DNA from: a virus
Lineage: Duplodnaviria; Heunggongvirae; Uroviricota; Caudoviricetes
Direction: 5' to 3' (one strand)
Virus record (IMG/VR): IMGVR_UViG_2698536559_000013
Length of the DNA: 10,585 nucleotides
Part shown: positions 22 through 10,585 of the stretch, piece after piece
How positions within the stretch are numbered: the first letter of the stretch is position 1
Layout: each line of letters opens with the position of its first letter
Notes under the pieces: model-generated
What the model was told of the DNA's origin: nothing
Databases searched by the model: none
What the model saw: only the letters and a program-made list of their open reading frames with translations
Translations under genes and position numbers: made by a program

Positions 22-3000
22 TTACGTTTTATCAACCACCAACGCACCATATTTAGACGGCCCAGATGTCTTAACATTCAATGCTCGACCACTTAATGCT
101 TCGCCTGACTTACTTTTCAACAGTAACGTAAATACCAGATTGTTGGTATCGCTCACTACAGCCGAAGATGCAGATGATGTGATCTCCAACACAGCCCCCT
201 TCACATCCGTTACGGCATCAATATTCTGGCTTGCGGTTATGCGTTTCCCATCCAGAACATACTCGGCCTGAATTGTGTACTGGCCTGATTTCGTTGCAGT
301 GAACTGCGTTGTTGCCTGTCCATGAGCATCCAGTTGCAGATTACTACTGGTCAATGATGCTCCCGTCGATGGTGTAATCGTTAAATCCACCTCGCCTGTA
401 AACGCATTGTTATTCGCATCAACCAACTGAATGTTTACTGTTGCGTTTTCACTGCCATCGGCCACAATCTCCTGTTTTGATACACTCATAGTAAGTTCTG
501 CAGAAGCAACATCGGGCACAAAAGTTAACTTAACGCTGCCAGATTCCACGCTATGGGAACCGTCAGTCACCCGTGCAGTCACCGTGTACTCACCAGCTTT
601 CACCGTTGTAAGCGGAACAGAAACATGCCCTGTTGAATCAGTCACGATATTTGTTGGTACAGATAATCCTTCAGATGAGGTGATGAGCTGAATCTTTTGC
701 CCATTGACCGACGCATTCGTATTTGTCAGCTGCACATCTAATACCGCTGCATCCTTACCATTAGCAGGAATATTGGAAATTAAACTACTGCTTTCAGGCG
801 TCAGTGACAGTGAAGCTCCGGTCATATTTGATGCAAAGGTCACTGTTAACTCAGTAGACATCTGAGAACCAGCATGAGCTGTAATCACGTAAGACCCCGG
901 AGTGGAGCTTATTAACGCAAAAATAGCATTACCATTTTCGTCAGTTGAAACAGCATGTTCACCACCAACTTGAGTTATCCCTGCTGGTAAAGACAATGTG
1001 ACAGCATAACCAGGAACAACATTGCCGAAACGGTCCGCAAGGCTTACAGTTACCATATTTCTCTGTTTTCCATCAGCCAATGCATTATTTTGGCTGGCTT
1101 CAAACTGAGAGAATGTAACCTGCTGCCGGTCCTCAATAAAGGTGATTTCTTTCTTAACACCTGAGAAATCATGACTATCAGATTTAACACCGATAGTAAT
1201 CTTACCAGCTCGTTTTGAAGTTACTGTCGCGCTATAGACACCGTCTTTTTCCGTTACAGTCCCAAACTCGACTCCTTCTGCCTGGTTAAGAGCATAAAAG
1301 CTCAGAGTGTTATCACCAGTGATTGCATTTCCTTGTGAATCCTTCACTGCCAGTTGTAGATTGATATTGTAACCAACTACCTGTTCTGCTGGTGCAGCGG
1401 TTAAAACAGCACTGACCTCAGAATCAGGTTCTGTTGCTGCTGTTTGCTTAATACTGAGAGTAAATGTTTTTCCCTGAACTTTTGCAGTTACACGTACCGT
1501 ACCAGCCTGCGAACCAGCAGTCAGAACAGAGTGATATACCCCAGCAGAGATTTCCTCTACCGCGCCTAATGACGGAGCAGTTACCGTTTCACGCTGTCGA
1601 GCACTATTGCTATCTGCTGTAAATTCCACTGACATTTCAATGTCATCAGCCAGTCCGGTTAATGCCTTACCGTTACTATCTTTCAGGCTTAATACTATCG
1701 GATAAGTGGATTGGCTATCAGCAGAGATCGTCGGCGACGAATCTCCATCCAGTGTAAAAGATGAATCCGCTGTCGAGACACCACTATTATTAACGCTGAT
1801 ATTCATAACGGCATAGTTGGAAACATTGCCTCTGTTATCCTGGACTGTGGCTCCAACATTCCACGAATTTACATCTCCGCTTTTATAAGCCGGTAAAGTG
1901 ATCTGCCATGATGTGCCATTTCCACTGATCTTACCGCCAGCCGCAGTGAATGCACTATCATTCCACTGTACAGACTTGATACCACCACTAGCATTGTTGA
2001 TTGTCAGTGTTACAGGGATGATTGATTCCCCCTCCCCCTGAACAGACTCTGGTAAGCTGATTTTCAGTGCATGCTTCTTCTTGTACTCCAGAACAATGTT
2101 GTTATTTCGTTCAACAAAATCATAACGCCGGTTCTGGACTTCTCGCATAACAGCAACATTGTCACTGCTAAGCTGTTCAGCAAGGGAAACGCCCGGGCGA
2201 TAATTAAACTCAACACCAAAGGTTGTATCGTGAACGTTGCTCTGTCCTTGCTTATGCTGTGCAGAAAACTTAATCAGAGGAACTGGTGTATAAGAAATTC
2301 CCCCAGTAACTGCGTAAGGGTTTTCCTGAAGATTATCGCTTCCAAATAACCCGACATTTTTACCATAATATTTTTCAAACTGAATGGATGCCCCTAATTG
2401 CGGATAAGCAGGTAGCCATCCTTCAGCAGAAAAATCCCAGCCATTTGCGGGTCTTTCCAGATAATCATCAATATCCCGACTGTTCTTCCAGTCAGACAAA
2501 CCAAAATAGGTATTTACACCAAGCCTGAAATAATCTCTCCAGTACTCAACCCCAAAACCTGCACGAGAGTGACTGCGACTTAAATCGTAATCATAGAAAA
2601 CATTCGCACCCAACATTGCGTTATCAGGAGTGAAATGACGAATCCCCAAACCAATATTGGTCTGATTTCGGTCATCAGTACGATGTAGTGATGTCTGACT
2701 GAATAGCACATAATCCTGAGTATCCAGCCATGGATATAAAAAGTCGAATGATGAATCCTTCAAGGAAAAAGAATCATCGACATTAAGCTTGATGCGCGCA
2801 TTGCCATATTGTTGCAACCAGTCGACGACCTCTTTTGTCGCCTGAGTTGATAAAGTATTTACAGCAAAACTACTTGCATTATTATTTGCTAGGCTCTGAC
2901 CTGCACTTGCTGCAAATGAGGCCACTTTATTTGCATGCTCATCGCTGGCATAAGTTTGCGTAACATCTTTATTACCAGATGATGCAAAACTGTTTGCTGG

Positions 3001-3102
3001 GATCAAAGAAAGAGAAACTGGAGATAATATCTGGGTAACAATTACCGACCATGTAATCGCGCCAGATGCAGTTTTTTTTAACTTTTTATTCACAGTGGTC
3101 AT
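22..3102 (-). CDS. Inverse autotransporter adhesin (intimin/invasin family), 1026 aa, apparently full length
   Basis: Long uninterrupted minus-strand ORF (stop TAA at 22-24, ATG at 3100-3102). N-terminus is hydrophobic and signal-peptide-like, followed by a sequence typical of the inverse-autotransporter beta-barrel domain (e.g. YDYDLSRSHSRAGFGVEYWRDYFRLGVNTYF, FGVEFNYRPGV). The rest is Ser/Thr/Val/Gly-rich, consistent with bacterial Ig-like (Big) repeat passenger domains. Family call is from recalled sequence features; domain boundaries were not computed. Confidence 0.85.
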   Translation of the reverse strand: MTTVNKKLKKTASGAITWSVIVTQILSPVSLSLIPANSFASSGNKDVTQTYASDEHANKVASFAASAGQSLANNNASSFAVNTLSTQATKEVVDWLQQYGNARIKLNVDDSFSLKDSSFDFLYPWLDTQDYVLFSQTSLHRTDDRNQTNIGLGIRHFTPDNAMLGANVFYDYDLSRSHSRAGFGVEYWRDYFRLGVNTYFGLSDWKNSRDIDDYLERPANGWDFSAEGWLPAYPQLGASIQFEKYYGKNVGLFGSDNLQENPYAVTGGISYTPVPLIKFSAQHKQGQSNVHDTTFGVEFNYRPGVSLAEQLSSDNVAVMREVQNRRYDFVERNNNIVLEYKKKHALKISLPESVQGEGESIIPVTLTINNASGGIKSVQWNDSAFTAAGGKISGNGTSWQITLPAYKSGDVNSWNVGATVQDNRGNVSNYAVMNISVNNSGVSTADSSFTLDGDSSPTISADSQSTYPIVLSLKDSNGKALTGLADDIEMSVEFTADSNSARQRETVTAPSLGAVEEISAGVYHSVLTAGSQAGTVRVTAKVQGKTFTLSIKQTAATEPDSEVSAVLTAAPAEQVVGYNINLQLAVKDSQGNAITGDNTLSFYALNQAEGVEFGTVTEKDGVYSATVTSKRAGKITIGVKSDSHDFSGVKKEITFIEDRQQVTFSQFEASQNNALADGKQRNMVTVSLADRFGNVVPGYAVTLSLPAGITQVGGEHAVSTDENGNAIFALISSTPGSYVITAHAGSQMSTELTVTFASNMTGASLSLTPESSSLISNIPANGKDAAVLDVQLTNTNASVNGQKIQLITSSEGLSVPTNIVTDSTGHVSVPLTTVKAGEYTVTARVTDGSHSVESGSVKLTFVPDVASAELTMSVSKQEIVADGSENATVNIQLVDANNNAFTGEVDLTITPSTGASLTSSNLQLDAHGQATTQFTATKSGQYTIQAEYVLDGKRITASQNIDAVTDVKGAVLEITSSASSAVVSDTNNLVFTLLLKSKSGEALSGRALNVKTSGPSKYGALVVDKT

Positions 3103-3351
3103 AGTTCAATCAACGTTATGAATATAATGAAAAAAATAACTGGTATGACAAGAGGCGCGAAATATACAGCTCGTTACAAAAAAATCAACTCAAAAATAAA
3201 ATAAAATCTCTGCATAAACTTTATGGCTAAATGATTTCACAACAATGGAAGAAAAATTTTGTTGCTCACGCAATCAATCATTTCGGGCGTTACAACTAGT
3301 CCTAGATTATATTCGCTAGGTATACTTTATTTTTAAGCTAATACTTTAGCT
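3103..3351 (-). promoter_or_regulatory. AT-rich upstream region of the adhesin gene; putative promoter/regulatory region
   Basis: About 250 bp of strongly AT-rich non-coding sequence between the stop of the P fragment and the adhesin start codon. No specific -35/-10 elements were confidently identified. Confidence 0.3.
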
Positions 3352-3912
3352 CTATTTCATCGCTCCTTTCAGCCCGAACTTAGCTTTGATTTCTGCGATC
3401 TTCGCCAGAGCCTGTGCACGATTTAGAGGTCTACCGCCCATGACAGGAAGTTGTTTTACTGGTTCAGGTATAGCCTCACCACGGTTAATTCGTGCGGTCA
3501 TACAGGACAGTTCATCGGCAGCCTTGCGCCGTAATTCCGCGTCAGTCAACGCATTGGCCCGCATGTTCTGATACAGGTTGGTAACCAGCCAGTAGTGCGC
3601 GTTTGATTTCCACGGATAAGACTCTGCATCCAGATACAGCCCGCGCTTCCGGCAATACTCGTAAACCATATCAACCAGCTCGCTGGCGTTTGGCAGTCCG
3701 GCGGTAACGGATGCTTCTTCCCGGCACCAGGCAACAAACTGCCCGGGTGATGGCAGGAATGGTCGATTCTGCCGACGGGCGACACGCACTCCGGCGCTCA
3801 CCTGTTCCATTGTGGTGATCCCGTTTTCCCGGAAAGCCAGAACCCACTGGCGGCGGATTTCGTTCAGTTCGTTCTGGTCCCGGTTAGCCAGGCTCGCCGG
3901 GAAAGTTGCCAG
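3352..3912 (-). pseudogene. P: C-terminal fragment of lambda replication protein P (about residues 48-233); first in-frame Met is at 3810, giving a 152-aa ORF
   Basis: Minus-strand translation reads LATFPASLANRDQNELNEIRRQWVLAFRENGITTMEQVSAGVRVARRQNRPFLPSPGQFVAWCREEASVTAGLP...RAQALAKIAEIKAKFGLKGAMK, which I recognise as near-identical to the C-terminal part of lambda P. In-frame sequence above about 3913 (RANHGYKCVRCRDADI) no longer matches P. The extreme C-terminus (GAMK) and downstream sequence also differ from lambda, where ren would follow. Confidence 0.85.
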
Positions 3913-3997
3913 TATATCTGCATCGCGGCATCGAACGCACTTATACCCGTGATTTGCTCGTGGAAGTTTTTCTCGACGGACGCGGTAACGGCCTGAA
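3913..3997. other. Junction segment of unknown origin between the P fragment and the gam-proximal lambda-like sequence
   Basis: P homology ends near 3913, and sequence I recognise as the region just upstream of lambda gam (tcactaa...cctgttttcctaatcagcccggcatttcgcgggcgatattttcacagc) begins near 3998. The roughly 85 bp between matches neither as far as I can recall. Confidence 0.4.
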
Positions 3998-4079
3998 TCA
4001 CTAATCTCCTTTCCTGTTTTCCTAATCAGCCCGGCATTTCGCGGGCGATATTTTCACAGCCATTTTCAGGAGTTCAGCC

Positions 4080-4376
4080 ATGAACGCTTATTACATTCAG
4101 GATCGTCTTGAGGCTCAGAGCTGGGCGCGTCACTACCAGCAGATCGCCCGTGAAGAGAAAGAGGCAGAACTGGCAGACGACATGGAAAAAGGCCTGCCCC
4201 AGCACCTGTTTGAATCGCTATGCATCGATCATTTGCAACGTCACGGGGCCAGCAAAAAAGCCATTACCCGTGCGTTTGATGACGATGTTGAGTTTCAGGA
4301 GCGCATGGCAGAACACATCCGGTACATGGTTGAAACCATTGCTCACCACCAGGTTGATATTGATTCAGAGGTATAA
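4080..4376 (+). CDS. gam: Gam (short GamS form, 98 aa), RecBCD inhibitor
   Basis: ORF translation [98 protein letters not shown] matches lambda Gam from its internal Met onward, with two substitutions relative to my recollection. Strong SD caggag sits 7 nt upstream of the ATG. Confidence 0.9.
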
Positions 4377-4381
4377 AACGA

Positions 4382-4911
4382 ATGAGTACTGCACTCGCAA
4401 CGCTGGCAGGGAAGCTGGCTGAACGTGTCGGCATGGATTCTGTCGACCCACAGGAACTGATCACCACTCTTCGCCAGACGGCATTTAAAGGTGATGCCAG
4501 CGATGCGCAGTTCATCGAAAAACCCGCGAAGGCAGAGAAATCACCGGACCGTGGCAGTCGCATCCCAAACGAATGTTGCGGCATAAAGCCATGATTCAGT
4601 GTGCCCGTCTGGCCTTCGGATTTGCTGGTATCTATGACAAGGATGAAGCCGAGCGCATTGTCGAAAATACTGCATACACTGCGGAACGTCAGCCGGAACG
4701 CGACATCACTCCGGTTAACGATGAAACCATGCAGGAGATTAACACTCTGCTGATCGCCCTGGATAAAACATGGGATGACGACTTATTGCCGCTCTGTTCC
4801 CAGATATTTCGCCGCGACATTCGCGCATCGTCAGAACTGACACAGGCCGAAGCAGTGAAAGCTCTTGGATTCCTGAAACAGAAAGCCACTGAGCAGAAGG
4901 TGGCAGCATGA
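4382..4911 (+). pseudogene. bet: bet (Red-beta single-strand annealing protein) disrupted by an internal out-of-frame deletion
   Basis: N-terminal 45 residues (MSTALATLAGKLAERVGMDSVDPQELITTLRQTAFKGDASDAQFI) match lambda Bet, then the frame reads non-Bet sequence to a stop at 4592-4594. The Bet C-terminal part (PKRMLRHKAMIQCARLAFGFAGIYDKDEAERIVENTAYTAERQPERD...[11 protein letters not shown]) continues in the +1 frame to 4911. The breakpoint lies near 4515-4520 (ttcatcg/aaaaacccgcgaagg). Confidence 0.85.
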
Positions 4912-5588
4912 CACCGGACATTATCCTGCAGCGTACCGGGATCGACGTGAGAGCTGTCGAACAGGGGGATGATGCATGGCACAAATTACGGCTCGGCGTC
5001 ATCACCGCTTCAGAAGTTCATAACGTGATAGCAAAGCCCCGATCAGGAAAGAAGTGGCCTGACATGAAAATGTCCTACTTCCACACCCTGCTGGCTGAGG
5101 TTTGCACCGGTGTGGCTCCGGAAGTTAATGCTAAGGCGCTGGCCTGGGGAAAACAGTACGAGAACGACGCCAGAACTCTGTTTGAATTCACTTCCGGCGT
5201 GAATGTTACTGAATCCCCGATCATCTATCGCGACGAAAGTATGCGCACCGCCTGCTCTCCCGATGGTTTATGCAGTGACGGCAATGGCCTTGAGCTGAAA
5301 TGCCCGTTTACCTCCCGGGATTTCATGAAGTTCCGGCTCGGTGGTTTCGAGGCCATAAAGTCGGCTTACATGGCCCAGGTGCAGTACAGCATGTGGGTGA
5401 CGCGAAAAGATGCCTGGTACTTTGCCAACTATGACCCGCGTATGAAGCGTGAAGGACTGCATTATGTCGTGGTTGAGCGGGATGAAAAGTACATGGCGAG
5501 TTTTGACGAGATGGTGCCGGAGTTCATCGAAAAAATGGACGAGGCACTGGCTGAAATTGGTTTTGTATTTGGGGAGCAATGGCGATGA
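4908..5588 (+). CDS. exo: Lambda-type exonuclease (Red-alpha, Exo), 226 aa
   Basis: Full-length ORF whose translation ([65 protein letters not shown]...[15 protein letters not shown]) matches lambda Exo with a few substitutions. ATGA start/stop overlap with bet, as in lambda. Confidence 0.95.
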
Positions 5589-5767
5589 AGCATCCTCACG
5601 ATAATATCCGGGTAGGCGCGATCACTTTCGTCTACTCCGTTACAAAGCGAGGCTGGGTATTTCCCGGCCTTTCTGTTATCCGAAATCCCCTGAAAGCACA
5701 GCGGCTGGCTGAGGAGATAAATAATAAACGGGGAGCTGTATGCACAAAGCATCTCCCGTTGAGTTAA
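5585..5767 (+). CDS. orf60a: Lambda orf60a-like small protein (60 aa from the ATG overlapping the exo stop; an upstream ATG at 5579 would give 62 aa)
   Basis: Translation [57 protein letters not shown]... matches my recollection of lambda orf60a. ATGA overlap with the exo stop. Confidence 0.7.
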
Positions 5768-5931
5768 GAACGAGTATCGAGATGGCACATAGCCTCGCTC
5801 AAATTGGAGTCAGGTTTGTGCCAATACCAGTAGAAACAGACGAAGAATTTCATACGTTAGCCGCATCCCTTTCACAAAAGCTGGAAATGATGGTGGCGAA
5901 AGCAGAAGCAGATGAGAGAGACCAGGTATGA
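5740..5931 (+). CDS. orf63: Lambda orf63-like small protein (63 aa)
   Basis: ORF of exactly 63 codons ([63 protein letters not shown]) in the position of orf63 of the lambda early-left operon. Overlaps the 3' end of orf60a in another frame. Confidence 0.7.
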   Translation: MHKASPVELRTSIEMAHSLAQIGVRFVPIPVETDEEFHTLAASLSQKLEMMVAKAEADERDQV

Positions 5932-6011
5932 CAACCACTGAATGCATTTTTCTGGCAGCGGTCTTCATATTCTGTGTGCTTATGCTTGCCGACATGGGAC
6001 TTGTTCAATGA
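5928..6011 (+). CDS. Candidate 27-aa hydrophobic small protein (MTTTECIFLAAVFIFCVLMLADMGLVQ)
   Basis: Below the ORF-track size cutoff. Its ATG overlaps the orf63 stop as ATGA (5928-5931) and its stop overlaps the orf61 start as ATGA (6008-6011). The core is strongly hydrophobic, consistent with a single transmembrane helix. Confidence 0.4.
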   Translation: MTTTECIFLAAVFIFCVLMLADMGLVQ

Positions 6012-6223
6012 CACCTCAGCAAGAAAACGCCCTTCGCAGCATTGCCCATCTGGCTAATTATGAAATCAAAAAAGCCAGACAGCAGTTTCCGGATAAAAAC
6101 GTCGATGACATTTGCCGTAGCGTACTGAAGAAGCACCGCGAAACGGTAACGCTGATGGGATTCACACCGACTCATTTAAGCCTGGCGATCGGCATGTTAA
6201 ACGGCGTCTTTAAGGAACGGTGA
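6008..6223 (+). CDS. orf61: Lambda orf61-like small protein (71 aa from this ATG)
   Basis: Translation MTPQQENALRSIAHLANYEIKKARQQFPDKNVDDICRSVLKKHRETVTLMGFTPTHLSLAIGMLNGVFKER; position and sequence are consistent with lambda orf61. The track ORF starts at an upstream ATG (5942), but the ATGA-coupled start at 6008 is more plausible. Confidence 0.65.
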   Translation: MTPQQENALRSIAHLANYEIKKARQQFPDKNVDDICRSVLKKHRETVTLMGFTPTHLSLAIGMLNGVFKER

Positions 6224-6225
6224 GC

Positions 6226-6315
6226 ATGAAAAACAAAATCATCATGGAGCTACAGGCTCCTTTTTTATTATTCGCATTCACCCTCAAGCGTATTAACCAA
6301 CAATTCAGGGATTAA
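6226..6315 (+). CDS. Candidate 29-aa small ORF (MKNKIIMELQAPFLLFAFTLKRINQQFRD)
   Basis: Short ORF filling the gap between orf61 and orf73, with aagga about 9 nt upstream of the ATG. No homology recognised; could be non-coding spacer. Confidence 0.2.
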   Translation: MKNKIIMELQAPFLLFAFTLKRINQQFRD

Positions 6316-6321
6316 TGAAAG

Positions 6322-6543
6322 ATGGCAGACATCATTGATTCAGCATCAGAAATTGAAGAATTACAGCGCAACACAGCAATAAAAATGCGCCGCCTGAACC
6401 ACCAGGCTATATCTGCCACTCATTGTTGTGAGTGTGGCGATCCGATAGATGAACGAAGACGTCTGGCCGTTCAGGGTTGTCGGACTTGTGCAAGTTGCCA
6501 GGAAGATCTGGAGCTTATCAGTAAACAGAGAGGTTCGAAGTGA
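6322..6543 (+). CDS. orf73: TraR/DksA-family C4 zinc-finger protein (lambda orf73-like), 73 aa
   Basis: 73-aa ORF with two Cys pairs (CCECGDP...CRTCASC) typical of the TraR/DksA zinc finger. Position matches lambda orf73. Confidence 0.8.
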   Translation: MADIIDSASEIEELQRNTAIKMRRLNHQAISATHCCECGDPIDERRRLAVQGCRTCASCQEDLELISKQRGSK

Positions 6544-7088
6544 GCGAAATTAACTCTCAGGCACTGCGTGAAGCGGCAGAGCAGGCAATGCATGACGACT
6601 GGGGATTTGATGCGGACCTTTTCCATGAGCTGGTAACACCATCGATTGTGCTGGCGCTGCTGGATGAACGGGAATCCCAAAACAAGCGTATTGCAGAACT
6701 GGAGAAAAGCGAAGAGCAACTCATTAACGAGCGTGACCATGCTGAGTCTGCTTTAGATGATATGTACTTTGCAGCAACCGGTAACAGGCCGGAGTGGAGC
6801 AACTGGTTCGGCTTTTCAGATGCTGTCGATGCCGTGGTTGACAGAATTGCTGATTTAGAAGCTAAACAATGCATTGAAGAGATGAGTAAACAAAGTTGCG
6901 AAGCTCGGGAGCGTGATTTGTTTGAATCATGGGTAATGCATTCAATTTGTATTTCCAAATCGACGCTTGAAGGATTGCGCACCGAAACTGGATACCGTAA
7001 CGCGACCTTATCAGGAACAGACTTCAACCGCATGTGGGAACAATGGAAATCTATCCGCGCTGCTGGTATTCGCATCAAAGGAGACTGA
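6540..7088 (+). CDS. ea22: Ea22-like protein, 182 aa (GTG start)
   Basis: 182-codon ORF whose N-terminus MSEINSQALREAAEQAMHDDWGFDADLFHELVTPSIVL matches my recollection of lambda Ea22. GTG start overlaps the orf73 stop (GTGA). Central region is coiled-coil-like and charged. Confidence 0.8.
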   Translation: MSEINSQALREAAEQAMHDDWGFDADLFHELVTPSIVLALLDERESQNKRIAELEKSEEQLINERDHAESALDDMYFAATGNRPEWSNWFGFSDAVDAVVDRIADLEAKQCIEEMSKQSCEARERDLFESWVMHSICISKSTLEGLRTETGYRNATLSGTDFNRMWEQWKSIRAAGIRIKGD

Positions 7089-7089
7089 T

Positions 7090-7299
7090 ATGGCTATTGC
7101 CGCAAGTTATACCATGCATCTCTATTGTGATTGTCGCCAGTGTACGGAAGGTGTATATCCAGTGCCAGACTTCGGTGAGTATATCGGTACGTCATGGTCT
7201 GGTTGTGCAAAAGAGGCCCGTAAAGATGGGTGGCGAATAAGCAAAGACAAAACACGTACTTTTGCGCCCGGGCATAAAGTTTTGAGGATTAACACATGA
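7090..7299 (+). CDS. ea8.5: Ea8.5-like Cys-rich small protein (69 aa from the ATG at 7090)
   Basis: ORF with the Cys motif HLYCDCRQCTEG...SGCAKEARKDGW in the position of lambda ea8.5. SD aaggag immediately upstream of the 7090 ATG. The track's longer version (from 6967) overlaps ea22 out of frame and is less likely. Confidence 0.7.
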   Translation: MAIAASYTMHLYCDCRQCTEGVYPVPDFGEYIGTSWSGCAKEARKDGWRISKDKTRTFAPGHKVLRINT

Positions 7300-8078
7300 C
7301 CACTATTACCAAAGAACGTATTGAATTGTTCATTAAAAATCCGCTTGAAAACGGGCTTACTCGTGGCGAACAAATGGAACTGGCACGAATTGCACTGGCA
7401 TCACTGGAACGCGAACAGATTCGCCACGAGCATGCCAAATGGTCTGACTCCACATTTGGCTGCGTTGGCCCCATTGGTCCACTGAAACACCTCTCAAAAG
7501 AGGCACTGGAAGCCGCAGCCGAACCAGACGATCTTAGCGAGTGGGCTGATATGCAGTTTCTGTTGTGGGATGCACAACGCCGTGCTGGCATCAGCGATGC
7601 TGAAATTAACGTTGCTATGGAAGATAAATTGAAGATCAACATGGAGCGCCAGTGGCCTGAGCCAAAAGATGGTGAGCCTCGCTTGCACATTAAAGAACCC
7701 GGCAACTCTCCGGTAATTCCGGATGGTTTATCCACGGTATGCGCTGAGGCTTATCAGGTTGTAGGAGTTATGGCAGATGCGCTTGGTGTATTCGGTGATG
7801 CAGCAGTACAGAAAGTTCTGGATAACCTGTCACAGCAAAAACTTGTTCACAGAGATGTGCTGCCGTTCTCGCTTCCGGTAACTCCGGATAGTTGGATAAG
7901 CTGTAGTGAGCGAATGCCGAACGACGCGCAGTGGTGCGTAGTGAACACAGAATACGGGTATTACGCGCAATGCTGGTCTGAAGGTCAAGGGTGGCTTGGT
8001 GATGATATCAGCATCCCTGAATGCGATGTAATCAATTGGATGCCACTACCAGAACCGCCGCAGGAGGTGAATCAATGA
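7296..8078 (+). CDS. Phage accessory protein with an N-terminal MazG-like (DUF550, dATP/dGTP pyrophosphohydrolase-type) domain and a C-terminal DUF551-like Cys/Trp-rich domain, 260 aa
   Basis: ATGA overlap with the ea8.5 stop; SD gagga 7 nt upstream. The N-terminal half carries acidic helix motifs (KEALEAAAEPDDLSEWADMQFLLWDAQRRAG) resembling all-alpha NTP pyrophosphohydrolases. The C-terminal half (WISCSERMPNDAQWCVVNTEYGYYAQCWSEGQGWLGDDISIPECDVINWMPLPEPP) resembles DUF551. Domain calls are from memory of motifs, not a profile search. Confidence 0.75.
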   Translation: MTTITKERIELFIKNPLENGLTRGEQMELARIALASLEREQIRHEHAKWSDSTFGCVGPIGPLKHLSKEALEAAAEPDDLSEWADMQFLLWDAQRRAGISDAEINVAMEDKLKINMERQWPEPKDGEPRLHIKEPGNSPVIPDGLSTVCAEAYQVVGVMADALGVFGDAAVQKVLDNLSQQKLVHRDVLPFSLPVTPDSWISCSERMPNDAQWCVVNTEYGYYAQCWSEGQGWLGDDISIPECDVINWMPLPEPPQEVNQ

Positions 8079-8158
8079 GCTGGCCTGAAGCATTCGCAAC
8101 GGTAGGAATTGCAATGGCGGTAGCACTGGTTTTGTATTCAATTTGTCGCTGGGGATAA
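8075..8158 (+). CDS. Candidate 27-aa membrane peptide (MSWPEAFATVGIAMAVALVLYSICRWG)
   Basis: ATGA overlap with the stop of the 260-aa gene; SD-like caggaggtga 5-14 nt upstream. Hydrophobic core consistent with one transmembrane helix. Below the ORF-track cutoff. Confidence 0.4.
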   Translation: MSWPEAFATVGIAMAVALVLYSICRWG

Positions 8159-8279
8159 CGATGATGCTCATGCGGAAATCATCAAAAAAATGGAACTGCT
8201 AACATGATTTAGGTGGGAGCCTGGAAGATGGCTCCACATATCAACATAGATTATTTCAGGATTCCATATTTTAACTAAT

Positions 8280-9164
8280 CTAAGTTCGACTATTTGGGGC
8301 ATTGATATGCTGTAAATGATGCTTAAGCCAATTTCCAGCCGCGCCTGGTGGCGATTTTTTATTCCAAAGCAGATCGATAGAAATTGCCTTTGGCCAGCCA
8401 GGTACGTCGAGCTGAACCAGCGGTTTTTCTGTTGCAAACTCCTCAACCAGAGCACAGGGCAGAGAGCACCAGCCAAATCCCTGTACGGCCATACTGAGTA
8501 ACAACAAATAGTTAGGTGCAGACCAAACCGGTCCACGGGCAATCATCTCCCGGTTATCGATATAAGTATTAAGACGAAGTTCTCGCCATGAATGAAGTTG
8601 TTCCCGCTGGATTGTTTTTTCTGCAGACAGTGGATGTGACGCCGAAACATAAATGCCCATCCACGCTTGCATCGGTAAACGGGTTGAGCCAATATCGGTG
8701 GGGTAGTGTTCCCGAGACTCAATTAAGCCGATCTGCGCTCGTTCTTTTTGCAAAAGATCGATGACATCGACATCCTCACCAATTAAAACCTCTAACTCAG
8801 TATGTGGAAACTGACTATCAAACTGCACCATGATGTCTTCTAATAAGTCAGGGTGTAGGGTATCGGAAAGCACAAACGTCAGACGAGCTTCAGTCTCTCC
8901 GGCAAGCGAAACCGCCACCTCCTCAAGACGTTCACTGGCTGACAAAATCGCATGAACGTAACTCAATACTTTCTTTCCTTCCTCTGTCAGCACAGGTTCT
9001 CGCGAAGAGCGATCGAATAATGATATACCAAGATCGACCTCAAGATTGGCAATTGACGTACTGACTGCGGACTGACTTTTGCGTAATCTTCGTGCCGCAG
9101 CAGAAAAGGAGCCACAGGAAACCGCTTCAACAAATGTACTTAACGCTTCAAGTGAGTAACGCAT
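8280..9164 (-). CDS. LysR-family transcriptional regulator, 294 aa
   Basis: N-terminal HTH typical of LysR-type regulators (LEALSTFVEAVSCGSFSAAARRLRKSQSAVSTSIANLEVDLGISLFDRSSREPVLTEEG) followed by a co-inducer-binding-type domain. Transcribed divergently from the adjacent transporter gene. Confidence 0.9.
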   Translation of the reverse strand: MRYSLEALSTFVEAVSCGSFSAAARRLRKSQSAVSTSIANLEVDLGISLFDRSSREPVLTEEGKKVLSYVHAILSASERLEEVAVSLAGETEARLTFVLSDTLHPDLLEDIMVQFDSQFPHTELEVLIGEDVDVIDLLQKERAQIGLIESREHYPTDIGSTRLPMQAWMGIYVSASHPLSAEKTIQREQLHSWRELRLNTYIDNREMIARGPVWSAPNYLLLLSMAVQGFGWCSLPCALVEEFATEKPLVQLDVPGWPKAISIDLLWNKKSPPGAAGNWLKHHLQHINAPNSRT

Positions 9165-9267
9165 AATCTATCAATTTTTTCGATGGTATCTATCTTTTAT
9201 ATATCACATAAATCGATAAAAATCTCACAACTCCATAACGCGGTCGAAACTGTAAGAAAGGTAAGTT
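9165..9267. promoter_or_regulatory. Divergent intergenic control region between the LysR gene and the PACE transporter gene
   Basis: 103-bp AT-rich spacer between divergent start codons. Contains an imperfect inverted repeat, tttttcgat (9176-9184) and atcgataaaaa (9213-9223), as might serve a LysR-type operator. No promoter elements were verified. Confidence 0.4.
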
Positions 9268-9726
9268 ATGCAACATAATGCGATTCAACGCAGATCGTTA
9301 CTTGAGCGTATTTTTCACGCTATTTGCTTTGAAGGAATTGCCACTGCGATTCTGGCCCCCACCACAGCATGGTTAATGCAGCGAACTATACTCGAAATGG
9401 GCGGGATGACTATCTTGTTGGCTTCAACTGCAATGATCTGGAATATCATCTATAACATGCTATTTGATCGCTACTGGCCTGCTCATCAGGTAAAACGAAC
9501 TGCAAAAGTTCGTGCATTCCATGCTTTGGGCTTTGAAAGTGGATTTATCGCGATCGGCGTCATTATGGTGTCCTGGATTCTGAGCGTCAGTCTGTTACAG
9601 GCTTTTACACTAGAGATAGGATTCTTCCTTTTCTTTCTACCATATACCATGTTCTACAATTGGGCCTATGACAGCTTACGTTTACGTGTTGTGAAACAGC
9701 ATCAACAACGTATGCTTGCCAGATAA
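9268..9726 (+). CDS. PACE-family (AceI-like) small efflux transporter, 152 aa
   Basis: Two tandem repeats each beginning with the R-x-x-h-A-x-x-F-E motif (ERIFHAICFEG and VRAFHALGFESG), plus WNxxYNxxFD-like motifs (MIWNIIYNMLFD, MFYNWAYD) and four predicted hydrophobic helices. Divergent LysR partner, as in aceR-aceI. Confidence 0.8.
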   Translation: MQHNAIQRRSLLERIFHAICFEGIATAILAPTTAWLMQRTILEMGGMTILLASTAMIWNIIYNMLFDRYWPAHQVKRTAKVRAFHALGFESGFIAIGVIMVSWILSVSLLQAFTLEIGFFLFFLPYTMFYNWAYDSLRLRVVKQHQQRMLAR

Positions 9727-9800
9727 TGTTTTCCCAGGGGAGTAATGAAAATCGCGCAATAATTTTCGATATCCATACTGTACCCCCACCGACTTAACAT

Positions 9801-9827
9801 CCCCGCCCTCGCGGGGATTTCTTTTAT
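9801..9827 (+). terminator. Rho-independent terminator downstream of the PACE gene
   Basis: GC-rich hairpin ccccgc-cctc-gcgggg (9801-9816) followed by a T-rich tract atttcttttat. Confidence 0.6.
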
Positions 9828-9830
9828 CTG

Positions 9831-9857
9831 AACTCGCTACGGCGAGTTTTGTTTTAT
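9831..9857 (+). terminator. Second tandem hairpin plus T-tract; possible back-up terminator
   Basis: aactcgc-tacg-gcgagtt stem-loop (9831-9848) followed by ttgttttat. Confidence 0.4.
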
Positions 9858-9868
9858 GGGGATGATAA

Positions 9869-10036
9869 ATGCACTTCCGAGTCACAGGAGAATGGAATGG
9901 AGAGCCATTCAACAGGGTTATCGAAACAGAGAACATCAACGACTGCTATGACCACTGGATAATATGGGCGCAGATAGCACATGCAGACATAACCAATATT
10001 CGAATTGAAGAACTGAAAGAACACCAAGCCGCCTGA
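9869..10036 (+). CDS. Candidate 55-aa protein of unknown function (MHFRVTGEWNGEPFNRVIETENINDCYDHWIIWAQIAHADITNIRIEELKEHQAA)
   Basis: Below the track cutoff. SD gggga 6 nt upstream of the ATG; in-frame stop immediately upstream; followed directly by a terminator hairpin. No family recognised. Confidence 0.45.
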   Translation: MHFRVTGEWNGEPFNRVIETENINDCYDHWIIWAQIAHADITNIRIEELKEHQAA

Positions 10037-10049
10037 TGGCGGTTTTTTT
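10028..10049 (+). terminator. Rho-independent terminator/attenuator overlapping the stop of the 55-aa ORF
   Basis: gccgcc-tgat-ggcgg hairpin followed by ttttttt (10043-10049). Confidence 0.55.
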
Positions 10050-10063
10050 ATTGGAGACAAGAA

Positions 10064-10408
10064 ATGTCAGATTTGGCTATGAAGGTTTTGAAATGGCAAT
10101 CGACTGGCGATGTTGGCATCAGTAGCGCAACTCTTGCCTCAATCGCATGTGGACTGAAAAAGAATATCTATGGTCATAGCTTCGGTGCTCCACATGACGC
10201 AGCCGATTTCAGACGATGCGTTGCACTTGTTGAGCAGATTCCAGAAATCAGAGATTCATTCGACAAGGTTGCAAAGCGCGTTCCGGCATTCAAAGGCATC
10301 CTCAACGAATGGGATTCCCTCGTTGCTCTGTTGAAGTCAGAAATGAAGATACACGGAAACAAAGCACCAGAGACTTACAGAAGAATCAGCGAGCTACGCA
10401 AGGACTAA
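10064..10408 (+). CDS. Hypothetical protein, 114 aa, unknown function
   Basis: ORF with SD ggaga 6 nt upstream of the ATG. Soluble-looking, mixed-charge protein (MSDLAMKVLKWQSTGDVGISSATLASIACGLKKNIYGHSFGAPHDAADFRRCVALVEQIPEIRDSFDKVAKRV...). No family recognised. Confidence 0.6.
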   Translation: MSDLAMKVLKWQSTGDVGISSATLASIACGLKKNIYGHSFGAPHDAADFRRCVALVEQIPEIRDSFDKVAKRVPAFKGILNEWDSLVALLKSEMKIHGNKAPETYRRISELRKD

Positions 10409-10585
10409 CCATGAAATAACACCGCCTCACACTCGATGAGGCCTGTTCATTGCTCAATGATATCCAGACCTACCGCAATAATACCAACTCAATAAATGGA
10501 GATTCCAGGTGGAAGAAGAAATCTTCACTCGTGAAGAGGCAGCATCGTATCTGAAGGTAGTGTAGTGGTCAACAAAAACTGGCCA

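Follow-up and report, generated by a model that had tools for sequence, protein, structure and literature searches.

A probable MazZ-like purine pyrophosphohydrolase gene of the EaA family and a separate small membrane-peptide gene in a truncated lambdoid prophage remnant

What kind of gene closes the phage-derived operon in this stretch of DNA, what might its product do, and does the tiny gene that follows belong to it? The window, by which we mean the whole stretch of 10,585 nucleotides (nt) of IMG/VR virus record IMGVR_UViG_2698536559_000013 (Caudoviricetes), carries on its + strand an open reading frame (ORF) for a 260-amino-acid (aa) two-domain protein, followed by an overlapping ORF for a 27-aa membrane peptide. 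A sequence-only reading of this DNA had taken the first for a fusion of a MazG-like/DUF550 domain with DUF551, standing in place of the xis and int genes of lambda, and had seen in the pair the likeliest site of an undescribed functional system. In our judgement the 260-aa ORF is probably an EaA-family gene encoding a MazZ-like purine pyrophosphohydrolase, situated in a truncated prophage remnant, and the peptide gene is separate from it. Both ORFs, including the ATGA overlap between them, were found where that reading had put them, and their parts are as follows.

7296..8078, + strand: EaA-family ORF of 260 aa with four modules and an ATG start (ORF list; full-length homologue of P22 EaA)
7296..7418, + strand: N-terminal leader, residues 1-41, matching the N-termini of several unrelated PHROGs (phrog_3323, 10451, 660)
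7419..7706, + strand: PF04447 (formerly DUF550, dATP-dGTP_PPHyd), putative MazZ-like all-alpha purine (deoxy)nucleoside triphosphate ((d)NTP) pyrophosphohydrolase domain, residues 42-137 (Pfam)
7500..7550, + strand: putative metal-binding motifs E69-x2-E72 ... E82-x2-D85, aligned to MazZ E35/E38/E50/D53
7707..7889, + strand: linker, residues 138-198, helical in the AlphaFold2 (AF2) prediction at low predicted local distance difference test (pLDDT) values and variable among relatives
7890..8063, + strand: DUF551 (PF04448), residues 199-256 (Pfam)
7920..8027, + strand: cassette-like hypervariable core of DUF551, residues 209-244, between the flanks PDxWISCSERMP and WMPLPEPPQEV (alignment A2)
8063..8067, + strand: GGAGG Shine-Dalgarno (SD) sequence of the peptide gene, within the last DUF551 codons (QEV) and 7 nt upstream of the start
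8075..8158, + strand: gene for the 27-aa single-pass membrane peptide, MSWPEAFATVGIAMAVALVLYSICRWG, with M-x-WPEAF, a transmembrane stretch and CRWG

The domain call made from the letters was right, and the profile search proposed as its check was positive both with Pfam and with hhalign against MazZ of phage S-2L. PF04447 matched with 140.1 bits over a cut-off of 23 (E=2.9e-41), covering model positions 1-96 of 97, and DUF551 matched with E=1e-10. The alignment of the family with S-2L MazZ (PDB 7ODY) had a probability of 92% and E=6.6e-7, extending over 89 columns of the 105 MazZ residues with 30% identity. Its score of 41.3 lay about 13 standard deviations above those obtained with 100 shuffled MazZ sequences (11.1+/-2.2, maximum 16.0), and the reversed sequence gave 12.5. 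In MazZ, E35, E38, E50, and D53 are described as four strictly conserved acidic residues in a passage on the coordination of the catalytic ions, in a paper that lists the residues holding both the nucleotide and three catalytic Mn2+ ions (PMC8342488). The equivalents E69, E72, E82, and D85, the acidic residues whose loss on alignment was to speak against the call, are intact and 99-100% conserved in 249 unique domain sequences. Further residues described for MazZ (PMC8342488) were placed on the protein by hhalign.

D92 here: MazZ D60, 3.0 Å from the guanine 2-amino group
W49 here: MazZ W15, a ligand contact
K111, N115, W120, R129, and H131 here: MazZ K76, N80, W85, R94, and H95, pocket of the second chain
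R118 here: MazZ R83, 2.8 Å from the beta-phosphate

These residues were 97-100% conserved in the 249 unique sequences, and most of them were invariant in the 56-sequence alignment. By these alignments the domain is homologous to the MazG-HisE all-alpha pyrophosphohydrolases and keeps their active-site residues, and we infer from this both a MazG-HisE fold and a pyrophosphohydrolase activity.

The likeness to MazZ takes in profile homology along the whole of that protein, the metal ligands, the Asp facing guanine N2, the K/N/R/W pocket, and the C-terminal R-x-H. The two differ in that MazZ is a (d)GTP-specific, stand-alone protein of 105 aa encoded between datZ and purZ, supplying dGMP for 2-aminoadenine DNA, whereas EaA, at about 30% identity, comes from lambdoid phages without purZ or datZ and has extra modules fused to it. 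The second relative with an assigned activity is the DUF5664-DUF550 fusion of Acinetobacter phage SH-Ab 15497 (AUG85482.1), a dATP/dGTP pyrophosphohydrolase as cited in PMC12884076; the same paper reports that Z-genome phages have DUF550 proteins which make up a separate monophyletic group. It shares PF04447 with EaA and keeps the ExxE...ExxD motifs and the Asp seven residues later; the domain aligned with it at E=2e-6 in BLASTP (34% identity over 71 aligned positions), and the family at E=1.6e-8 and 95.5% probability in hhalign. It differs in having DUF5664 at the N-terminus in place of the leader, no DUF551, a purZ neighbour, and a score against PF04447 of 33 bits, in contrast to 140 bits for the EaA domain. 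A third homologue search, with the SH-Ab 15497 domain as seed, returned 2 proteins only.

Regarding the gene model, the ATG at 7296 overlaps the stop codon of the preceding 69-aa ORF as ATGA and has a GAGGA SD sequence at 7284-7288. RefSeq splits the gene into a pseudo-fragment (7296-7421) and a coding sequence from an internal CTG (7395-8078), the product of which is named 'dATP/dGTP pyrophosphohydrolase domain-containing protein'. The idea of a broken gene was rejected, and we think that the 260-aa reading from the ATG at 7296 is the correct one, because of the SD and ATGA signals, the M1 and N-terminus conserved across the family, the alignment of P22 EaA from residue 1, and the presence of the identical 260-aa sequence on 408 public contigs, under the name 'DUF550 domain-containing protein'. 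At least 90% of the sequences in alignment A1 keep M1, and the majority consensus includes part of the leader, which is helical in the AF2 prediction at low confidence.

The closest named homologue is EaA of Salmonella phage P22 (NP_059588.1), which aligned by tblastn against phage genomes with 45% identity over residues 1-255 (98% of the length); further matches were many 'Eaa', 'EaA' and 'DUF550' proteins of Escherichia, Salmonella, Shigella, and Klebsiella phages. P22 EaA has the same leader, PF04447, linker, and DUF551 and is encoded in the early 'ea' region upstream of xis-int, and it differs by its 317 aa, an insertion between leader and enzyme domain, and another DUF551 core. With full-length collinear similarity and the order gam-bet-exo-...-ea22-like-EaA, although xis and int themselves are missing here, the sequence comparison places the gene in the P22 EaA family, that is, as a non-essential early accessory gene at the promoter-distal end of the exo-xis or 'ea' operon. 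Downstream of eaA, P22 has eaG, eaC, xis, and int. The orthologue in the intact phage ev017 shares 98.5% identity over residues 1-201, where identity ends, and precedes an ASCH gene, a small ORF, xis, and int. The gene of both intact relatives thus lies upstream of xis-int, and the proposal that it takes the place of these genes falls, the window being a truncated remnant. Nor is the system undescribed: this is an already catalogued family, a known kind of gene because the exact protein stands in public databases with a functional domain name, although its physiological role is unstudied. Our literature searches (DUF550, DUF551, eaA, exo-xis region), which gave no functional study of EaA, are in line with the sequence-only view of the function as uncharacterised in lambdoid phages.

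The family is large, with more than 8000 close sequences in a 90%-clustered collection and, among 50%-identity cluster representatives, 4249 at E<=1e-3 and 548 at E<=1e-30. The signature ExxE...E[WF]AD was present in 141 of the 150 best representatives, starting anywhere from about residue 19 to residue 341, while a complete DUF551 C-terminus was recognized by regular expression in only 34 of those 150. It follows that the enzyme domain is a mobile module, joined to many partners.

The C-terminal module matched PF04448 with 42.8 bits (cut-off 22), over model positions 1-68 of 68. When DUF551 alone was modelled by AF2 with 32 diverse family sequences, a pLDDT of 79.8 was reached, with strands at positions 8-9, 21-26, 31-37, 40-42, 47-48, and 53-58 of the domain, and the module is predicted to be a small SH3/Tudor-like beta-barrel. 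Its flanks, P-D-x-W-I-S-C-S-E-R-M-P and (T-H-)W-M-P-L-P-E-P-P-Q-E-V, were near-invariant, and the 35-62 residues between them differed fully in sequence and length, giving 63 unique cores among 164 family members. The median pairwise identity was 0.20 for the cores, 0.19 for shuffled cores, and 0.85 for the enzyme domain, and in 89% of the pairs with enzyme domains at least 90% identical the cores were less than 30% identical. Thousands of E. coli prophage copies match the window DNA at the two flanks only (7880-7924 and 8037-8158). Two readings of the core may be considered, one in which the conserved flanks are recombination junctions for cassette swapping and another in which the core is a binding surface under diversifying pressure; with low confidence we favour DUF551 as an adaptor. 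The cassette-like core, absent from the annotation and literature searched, may be an undescribed feature, of modest weight. The description of this module as Cys/Trp-rich holds for the present allele (4 Cys and 5 Trp in 68 aa) and not for the family, in which only C203, W200, and W248 are conserved; a conserved zinc site was rejected, as only one Cys is conserved. DUF551 is also found at the C-terminus of other exo-xis region proteins, namely, variant 2 of Ea22 in Shiga toxin (Stx) phages and YfdS of E. coli CPS-53, which differ from EaA in having the Ea22 coiled coil, or nothing, as N-terminal partner.

The peptide gene follows by ATGA overlap, as does every copy in the loci compared. The junction ...GGAGGTGAATCAATGA recurs in other phages, and the usual junction, CAGGAGGTGAATCAATGA, places the SD sequence inside the last DUF551 codons. 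By tblastn the peptide was detected in 93 phage records at 55-89% amino-acid identity, including Stx phages, 933W, YYZ-2008, BP-4795, the virulent Av-05, and the P1-like SJ46, and by blastn in 1623 of 5426 complete E. coli genomes, a single genome having as many as 7 copies. The ORF was intact in all 11 distinct DNA variants, of which 10 had 27 codons and one had 24. Between the motifs M-x-W-P-E/D-A-F and (C)-R-W-G lie 17-19 hydrophobic residues with a mean Kyte-Doolittle value of 2.2; the variable sites at codon positions 1, 2, and 3 numbered 12, 12, and 21, and homology between loci stops exactly at the peptide stop codon. From these features the ORF looks like a real small membrane protein gene, and E5 on the N-terminal side and R25 on the C-terminal side of the hydrophobic stretch make a single-pass N-out/C-in orientation likely. 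It is left unannotated by PGAP, a few older GenBank records calling it 'bacteriophage protein' or 'hypothetical protein', and it matched no Pfam, NCBIfam, PHROG, or PADLOC family. The breadth and conservation of this unannotated gene may likewise be undescribed, again a modest point.

As for the sequence-only pairing of enzyme and peptide, the peptide lay directly downstream in 24 of the 80 viral loci with this type of DUF551; many of the other loci had an ASCH gene there, and the rest unrelated genes, including two different tiny hydrophobic ORFs. The genes that precede the peptide in 933W, SJ46, Av-05, ArgO145, and two E. coli prophages lack DUF550 or lack DUF551, and no WPEAF peptide ORF was found directly after eaA in the P22 locus. 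The peptide is a separate, widespread mini-gene and not a dedicated partner of the enzyme. An apparent peptide-DUF551 fusion in Shigella, in a mixed 90% cluster, was a clustering artefact whose 121-aa members lack the peptide. A type I toxin of the Hok/Gef kind was considered and discarded, there being no Rfam match and no family signature and the peptide being translationally coupled instead. We also rejected an antisense gene under the peptide, for which one frame is open and the wobble positions are shared, since nearly all variants have no start codon ahead. In this connection, Shigella phage POCJ13 (locus L093) has a hypothetical protein annotated at 1506-1634 on the - strand, opposite the unannotated WPEAF peptide ORF; the frames of the other peptide variants suggest that it is non-coding, the POCJ13 allele lying outside the set analysed. 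The unrelated tiny hydrophobic ORFs at the same DUF551 junction, with ATGA or GTGA overlap, are exemplified by MMPPVKVVIITLVMIVIARIMSGEVWWIW and MNKCNALLYAMVIGFGLAAGIRVYITWESLINLAWSAIRG (loci L064, L067, and L068 at about 1695-1785; L046 at about 1692-1815), and suggest a recurring slot for a small membrane peptide at the end of the operon.

The state of the surrounding DNA was judged by comparison with E. coli chromosomes. Positions 26-10585 are 100% identical, one deletion excepted, to a few of these, for example NZ_CP039404, and at least 80% of the window is covered in 7 genomes only. In the RefSeq annotation of NZ_CP039404 the region is a decayed mosaic in the thrW/proA neighbourhood. It shows in order, on the left side, an inverse-autotransporter gene and then the truncated replication gene P on the opposite strand; in the middle, gam, bet, exo, DUF1317, DUF1382, a hypothetical gene, the TraR/DksA-like, Ea22-like, and 69-aa ORFs, and the EaA-family gene; and on the right side, a LysR regulator, a PACE efflux transporter, two hypothetical genes, an IS3 element, and a site-specific integrase adjoining tRNA-Thr about 4 kb downstream. 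None of pL, N, cI, kil, cIII, xis, and int is annotated in the remnant, which is a piece of about 4 kb of a lambdoid leftward early operon, truncated and without its own integrase. Its two ends are as follows.

3352-3810, - strand: remnant of the truncated replication protein P, oriented opposite to the abutting gam; marks where the lambdoid fragment breaks off on the left
8159..8279, no strand: right end of the phage-derived DNA and junction with the LysR/PACE cargo; phage and E. coli prophage matches end at 8158-8159, a few at 8203

Within the remnant, bet (4382-4911) lacks 256 bp at 4517-4519 with respect to all the closest E. coli genomes, which leaves two ORFs (4382-4594 and 4573-4911) with flanks 100% identical to those genomes on both sides. 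A consensus scan found no sigma-70-like promoter on the + strand between 3600 and 8400, nor any ahead of the operon, and in the promoter and terminator scan the relevant strand was at or below background. Rfam had 0 matches in the window, and a repeat scan around the junction gave nothing notable.

Taking these observations into account, we propose the following mechanism. Early transcription of the gene would follow infection or induction, and the enzyme domain, as a dimer or tetramer with Mg2+ or Mn2+, would convert purine (d)NTP to the monophosphate and pyrophosphate. The likely substrate is dGTP, possibly also dATP, dGTP being the first candidate because of D92 and dATP possible because of the analogy with the SH-Ab 15497 enzyme. 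The DUF551 barrel may serve as an adaptor, either binding variable partners or else localising or regulating the enzyme, and the purine dNTP pool would be transiently lowered or sanitised. The peptide would be a small inner-membrane protein, translationally coupled through the SD sequence and the ATGA carried by the conserved 3′ end of DUF551. Because purZ and datZ are absent from the remnant, from the ev017 flank, and from the ea region of P22, the enzyme has no role here in feeding 2-aminoadenine synthesis, and in lambdoid phages with ordinary DNA it may act in early lowering of dNTPs, in house-cleaning, or in the removal of a nucleotide signal.

Several points weigh against this reading. 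When the 56-member family profile was run against PDB, 7ODY_A was the sole match, a weak one at E=0.12, and phmmer with the protein against the PDB sequences found nothing relevant. The full-length AF2 monomer (56-sequence alignment) had a mean pLDDT of 49, its helices (23-54, 62-73, 80-96, and 101-117) falling at the places expected for a four-helix fold, and Foldseek on this model returned noise only. Substrate specificity is read from a single conserved Asp together with a few residues of the pocket, and F54 occupies the position aligned to N20 of MazZ, a residue unique to S-2L that contacts guanine O6. The functional name borne by the enterobacterial proteins is an annotation transfer from a distant member, because the SH-Ab 15497 enzyme itself scores only 33 bits against PF04447, and lambdoid EaA proteins have yet to be assayed as enzymes. 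For the peptide, the mean pN (nonsynonymous) was 0.165, the mean pS (synonymous) 0.45, and pN/pS 0.37; this speaks for a conserved ORF, but the ratio comes from 27 codons and 10 alleles. Finally, expression at this locus is doubtful because pL, N, and cI are absent and bet is disrupted.

This last point leads to the alternative that the genes at this locus are silent passengers in a decaying prophage fragment, of no benefit to the cell, which has a considerable chance of being correct, somewhat short of even. The missing pL, N, cI, kil, cIII, xis, and int, the truncated P gene at the boundary, the 256-bp bet deletion, the lack of a sigma-70-like promoter on the + strand from 3600 to 8400, and an arrangement common to 7 genomes only all agree with it. 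Still, the ORF is intact and has identical copies on 408 contigs, and weak or read-through promoters are compatible with the result of the consensus scan. A dedicated two-gene module, in which the peptide would anchor the pyrophosphohydrolase to the membrane or regulate it there, is very improbable and largely refuted by the distribution: strict ATGA coupling, the SD sequence within DUF551 codons, and adjacency in the 24 loci noted above would fit it, but most loci have ASCH or other genes after the same DUF551 end, the peptide also follows genes lacking DUF550 or DUF551 in the six phages and prophages already named, and the seeming fusion was an artefact.

Among the roles for an active enzyme, house-cleaning would consist in removing damaged or non-canonical purine nucleotides (8-oxo-dGTP, dITP, 2-oxo-dATP), so that phage DNA is protected during oxidative or SOS induction. 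It is on the unlikely side: the active site is intact, genes of the exo-xis region affect H2O2-driven induction (PMC4699033), and H2O2 sensitivity is reported for cells without the DUF551 protein YfdS; but this oxidative-stress link is an indirect one drawn from other genes, the residues showed no signature for damaged bases, and MazZ and the SH-Ab 15497 enzyme, which are the nearest relatives to have been characterised, use canonical dGTP or dATP. Anti-defence, the role favoured in the sequence-only reading, whereby the enzyme would destroy a nucleotide alarmone or immune messenger or starve a nucleotide-dependent defence, with DUF551 engaged in an arms race, we hold to be unlikely. Its precedent, the only one found in the literature searches, is Atd1, a MazG-like (p)ppGpp pyrophosphatase of a Pectobacterium phage with anti-TIR activity, which by depletion of (p)ppGpp protects against TIR-STING toxicity (bioRxiv 10.1101/2022.06.09.495361). 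By description Atd1 resembles EaA as a phage accessory all-alpha NTP pyrophosphatase, and the early, accessory, and highly mosaic nature of the eaA gene, together with cassette-like DUF551 variation beside a conserved enzyme, is in keeping with such a role; Atd1 differs in its proposed substrate. Moreover, PADLOC matched neither EaA nor the peptide, the literature searches gave no experimental or genomic-association data, the conserved pocket fits a guanine (d)NTP site, recombination at the conserved flanks can explain the variability of the core, and a cyanophage MazG is reported, in the title of PMC6850273, to be unable to hydrolyse magic-spot nucleotides. An elaboration, quite improbable to our mind, would make EaA a target-directed pyrophosphohydrolase with DUF551 as a swapped arms-race adaptor to host or defence proteins and local destruction of purine dNTPs or immune signals, and the widespread WPEAF...CRWG peptide an independent early effector directed at a membrane protein of the host.

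The EaA-family pyrophosphohydrolase, as we read it, matters in part by sheer frequency, the family counting 4249 cluster representatives at 50% identity and the peptide occurring in about 30% of complete E. coli genomes, Stx phages among the carriers. The role of a dGTP/dATP-type pyrophosphohydrolase in phages with ordinary DNA is a modest open question, for which the residue-level map of the active site (E69, E72, E82, D85, D92, K111, N115, R118, and W120) offers targets for mutagenesis. If it is true that EaA lowers purine dNTP pools early, this could bear on lysis-lysogeny decisions or on the induction of Stx prophages.

Upstream of the EaA-family gene, three neighbouring ORFs of the operon are as follows.

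6322..6543, + strand: TraR/DksA-type zinc-finger gene of the same operon (Pfam zf-dskA_traR, E=7.7e-9; RefSeq annotation)
6540..7088, + strand: Ea22-like gene of the same operon (Pfam Ead_Ea22)
7090..7299, + strand: 69-aa ORF, phrog_926 (E=3.6e-36), of unknown function, hypothetical in RefSeq

The 69-aa ORF, translationally coupled on both sides, had been identified from the letters as ea8.5 of lambda; this was rejected, since BLASTP against lambda Ea8.5 gave E=3.1 and the protein belongs to phrog_926. It contains four Cys (C13, C15, C18, and C39). The Ea22-like protein is identical to lambda Ea22 over residues 1-38 and then unrelated, and this mosaic of conserved end and swapped interior is the same pattern as in EaA. 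NCBIfam had no model for EaA, the 69-aa ORF, the Ea22-like protein, or the 27-aa peptide, and PADLOC, which had no match for EaA, the peptide, or most neighbours, gave its sole and marginal match (E=0.0065) to the TraR/DksA-like ORF.

Outside the remnant, window bases 1-25 differ from the genomes to which the window is otherwise identical, and they introduce a stop codon, so that the inverse-autotransporter ORF ends at position 22, while the reference gene runs about 450 nt further. Directly to the right of the remnant there is a divergent pair formed by a LysR-family gene (8280-9164, - strand), whose best NCBIfam match was AceR, below the cut-off, and a PACE-family biocide efflux transporter gene (9268-9726, + strand; NF033665, 205.6 bits against a cut-off of 165). 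The pair resembles an AceR/AceI-like module carried as island cargo.

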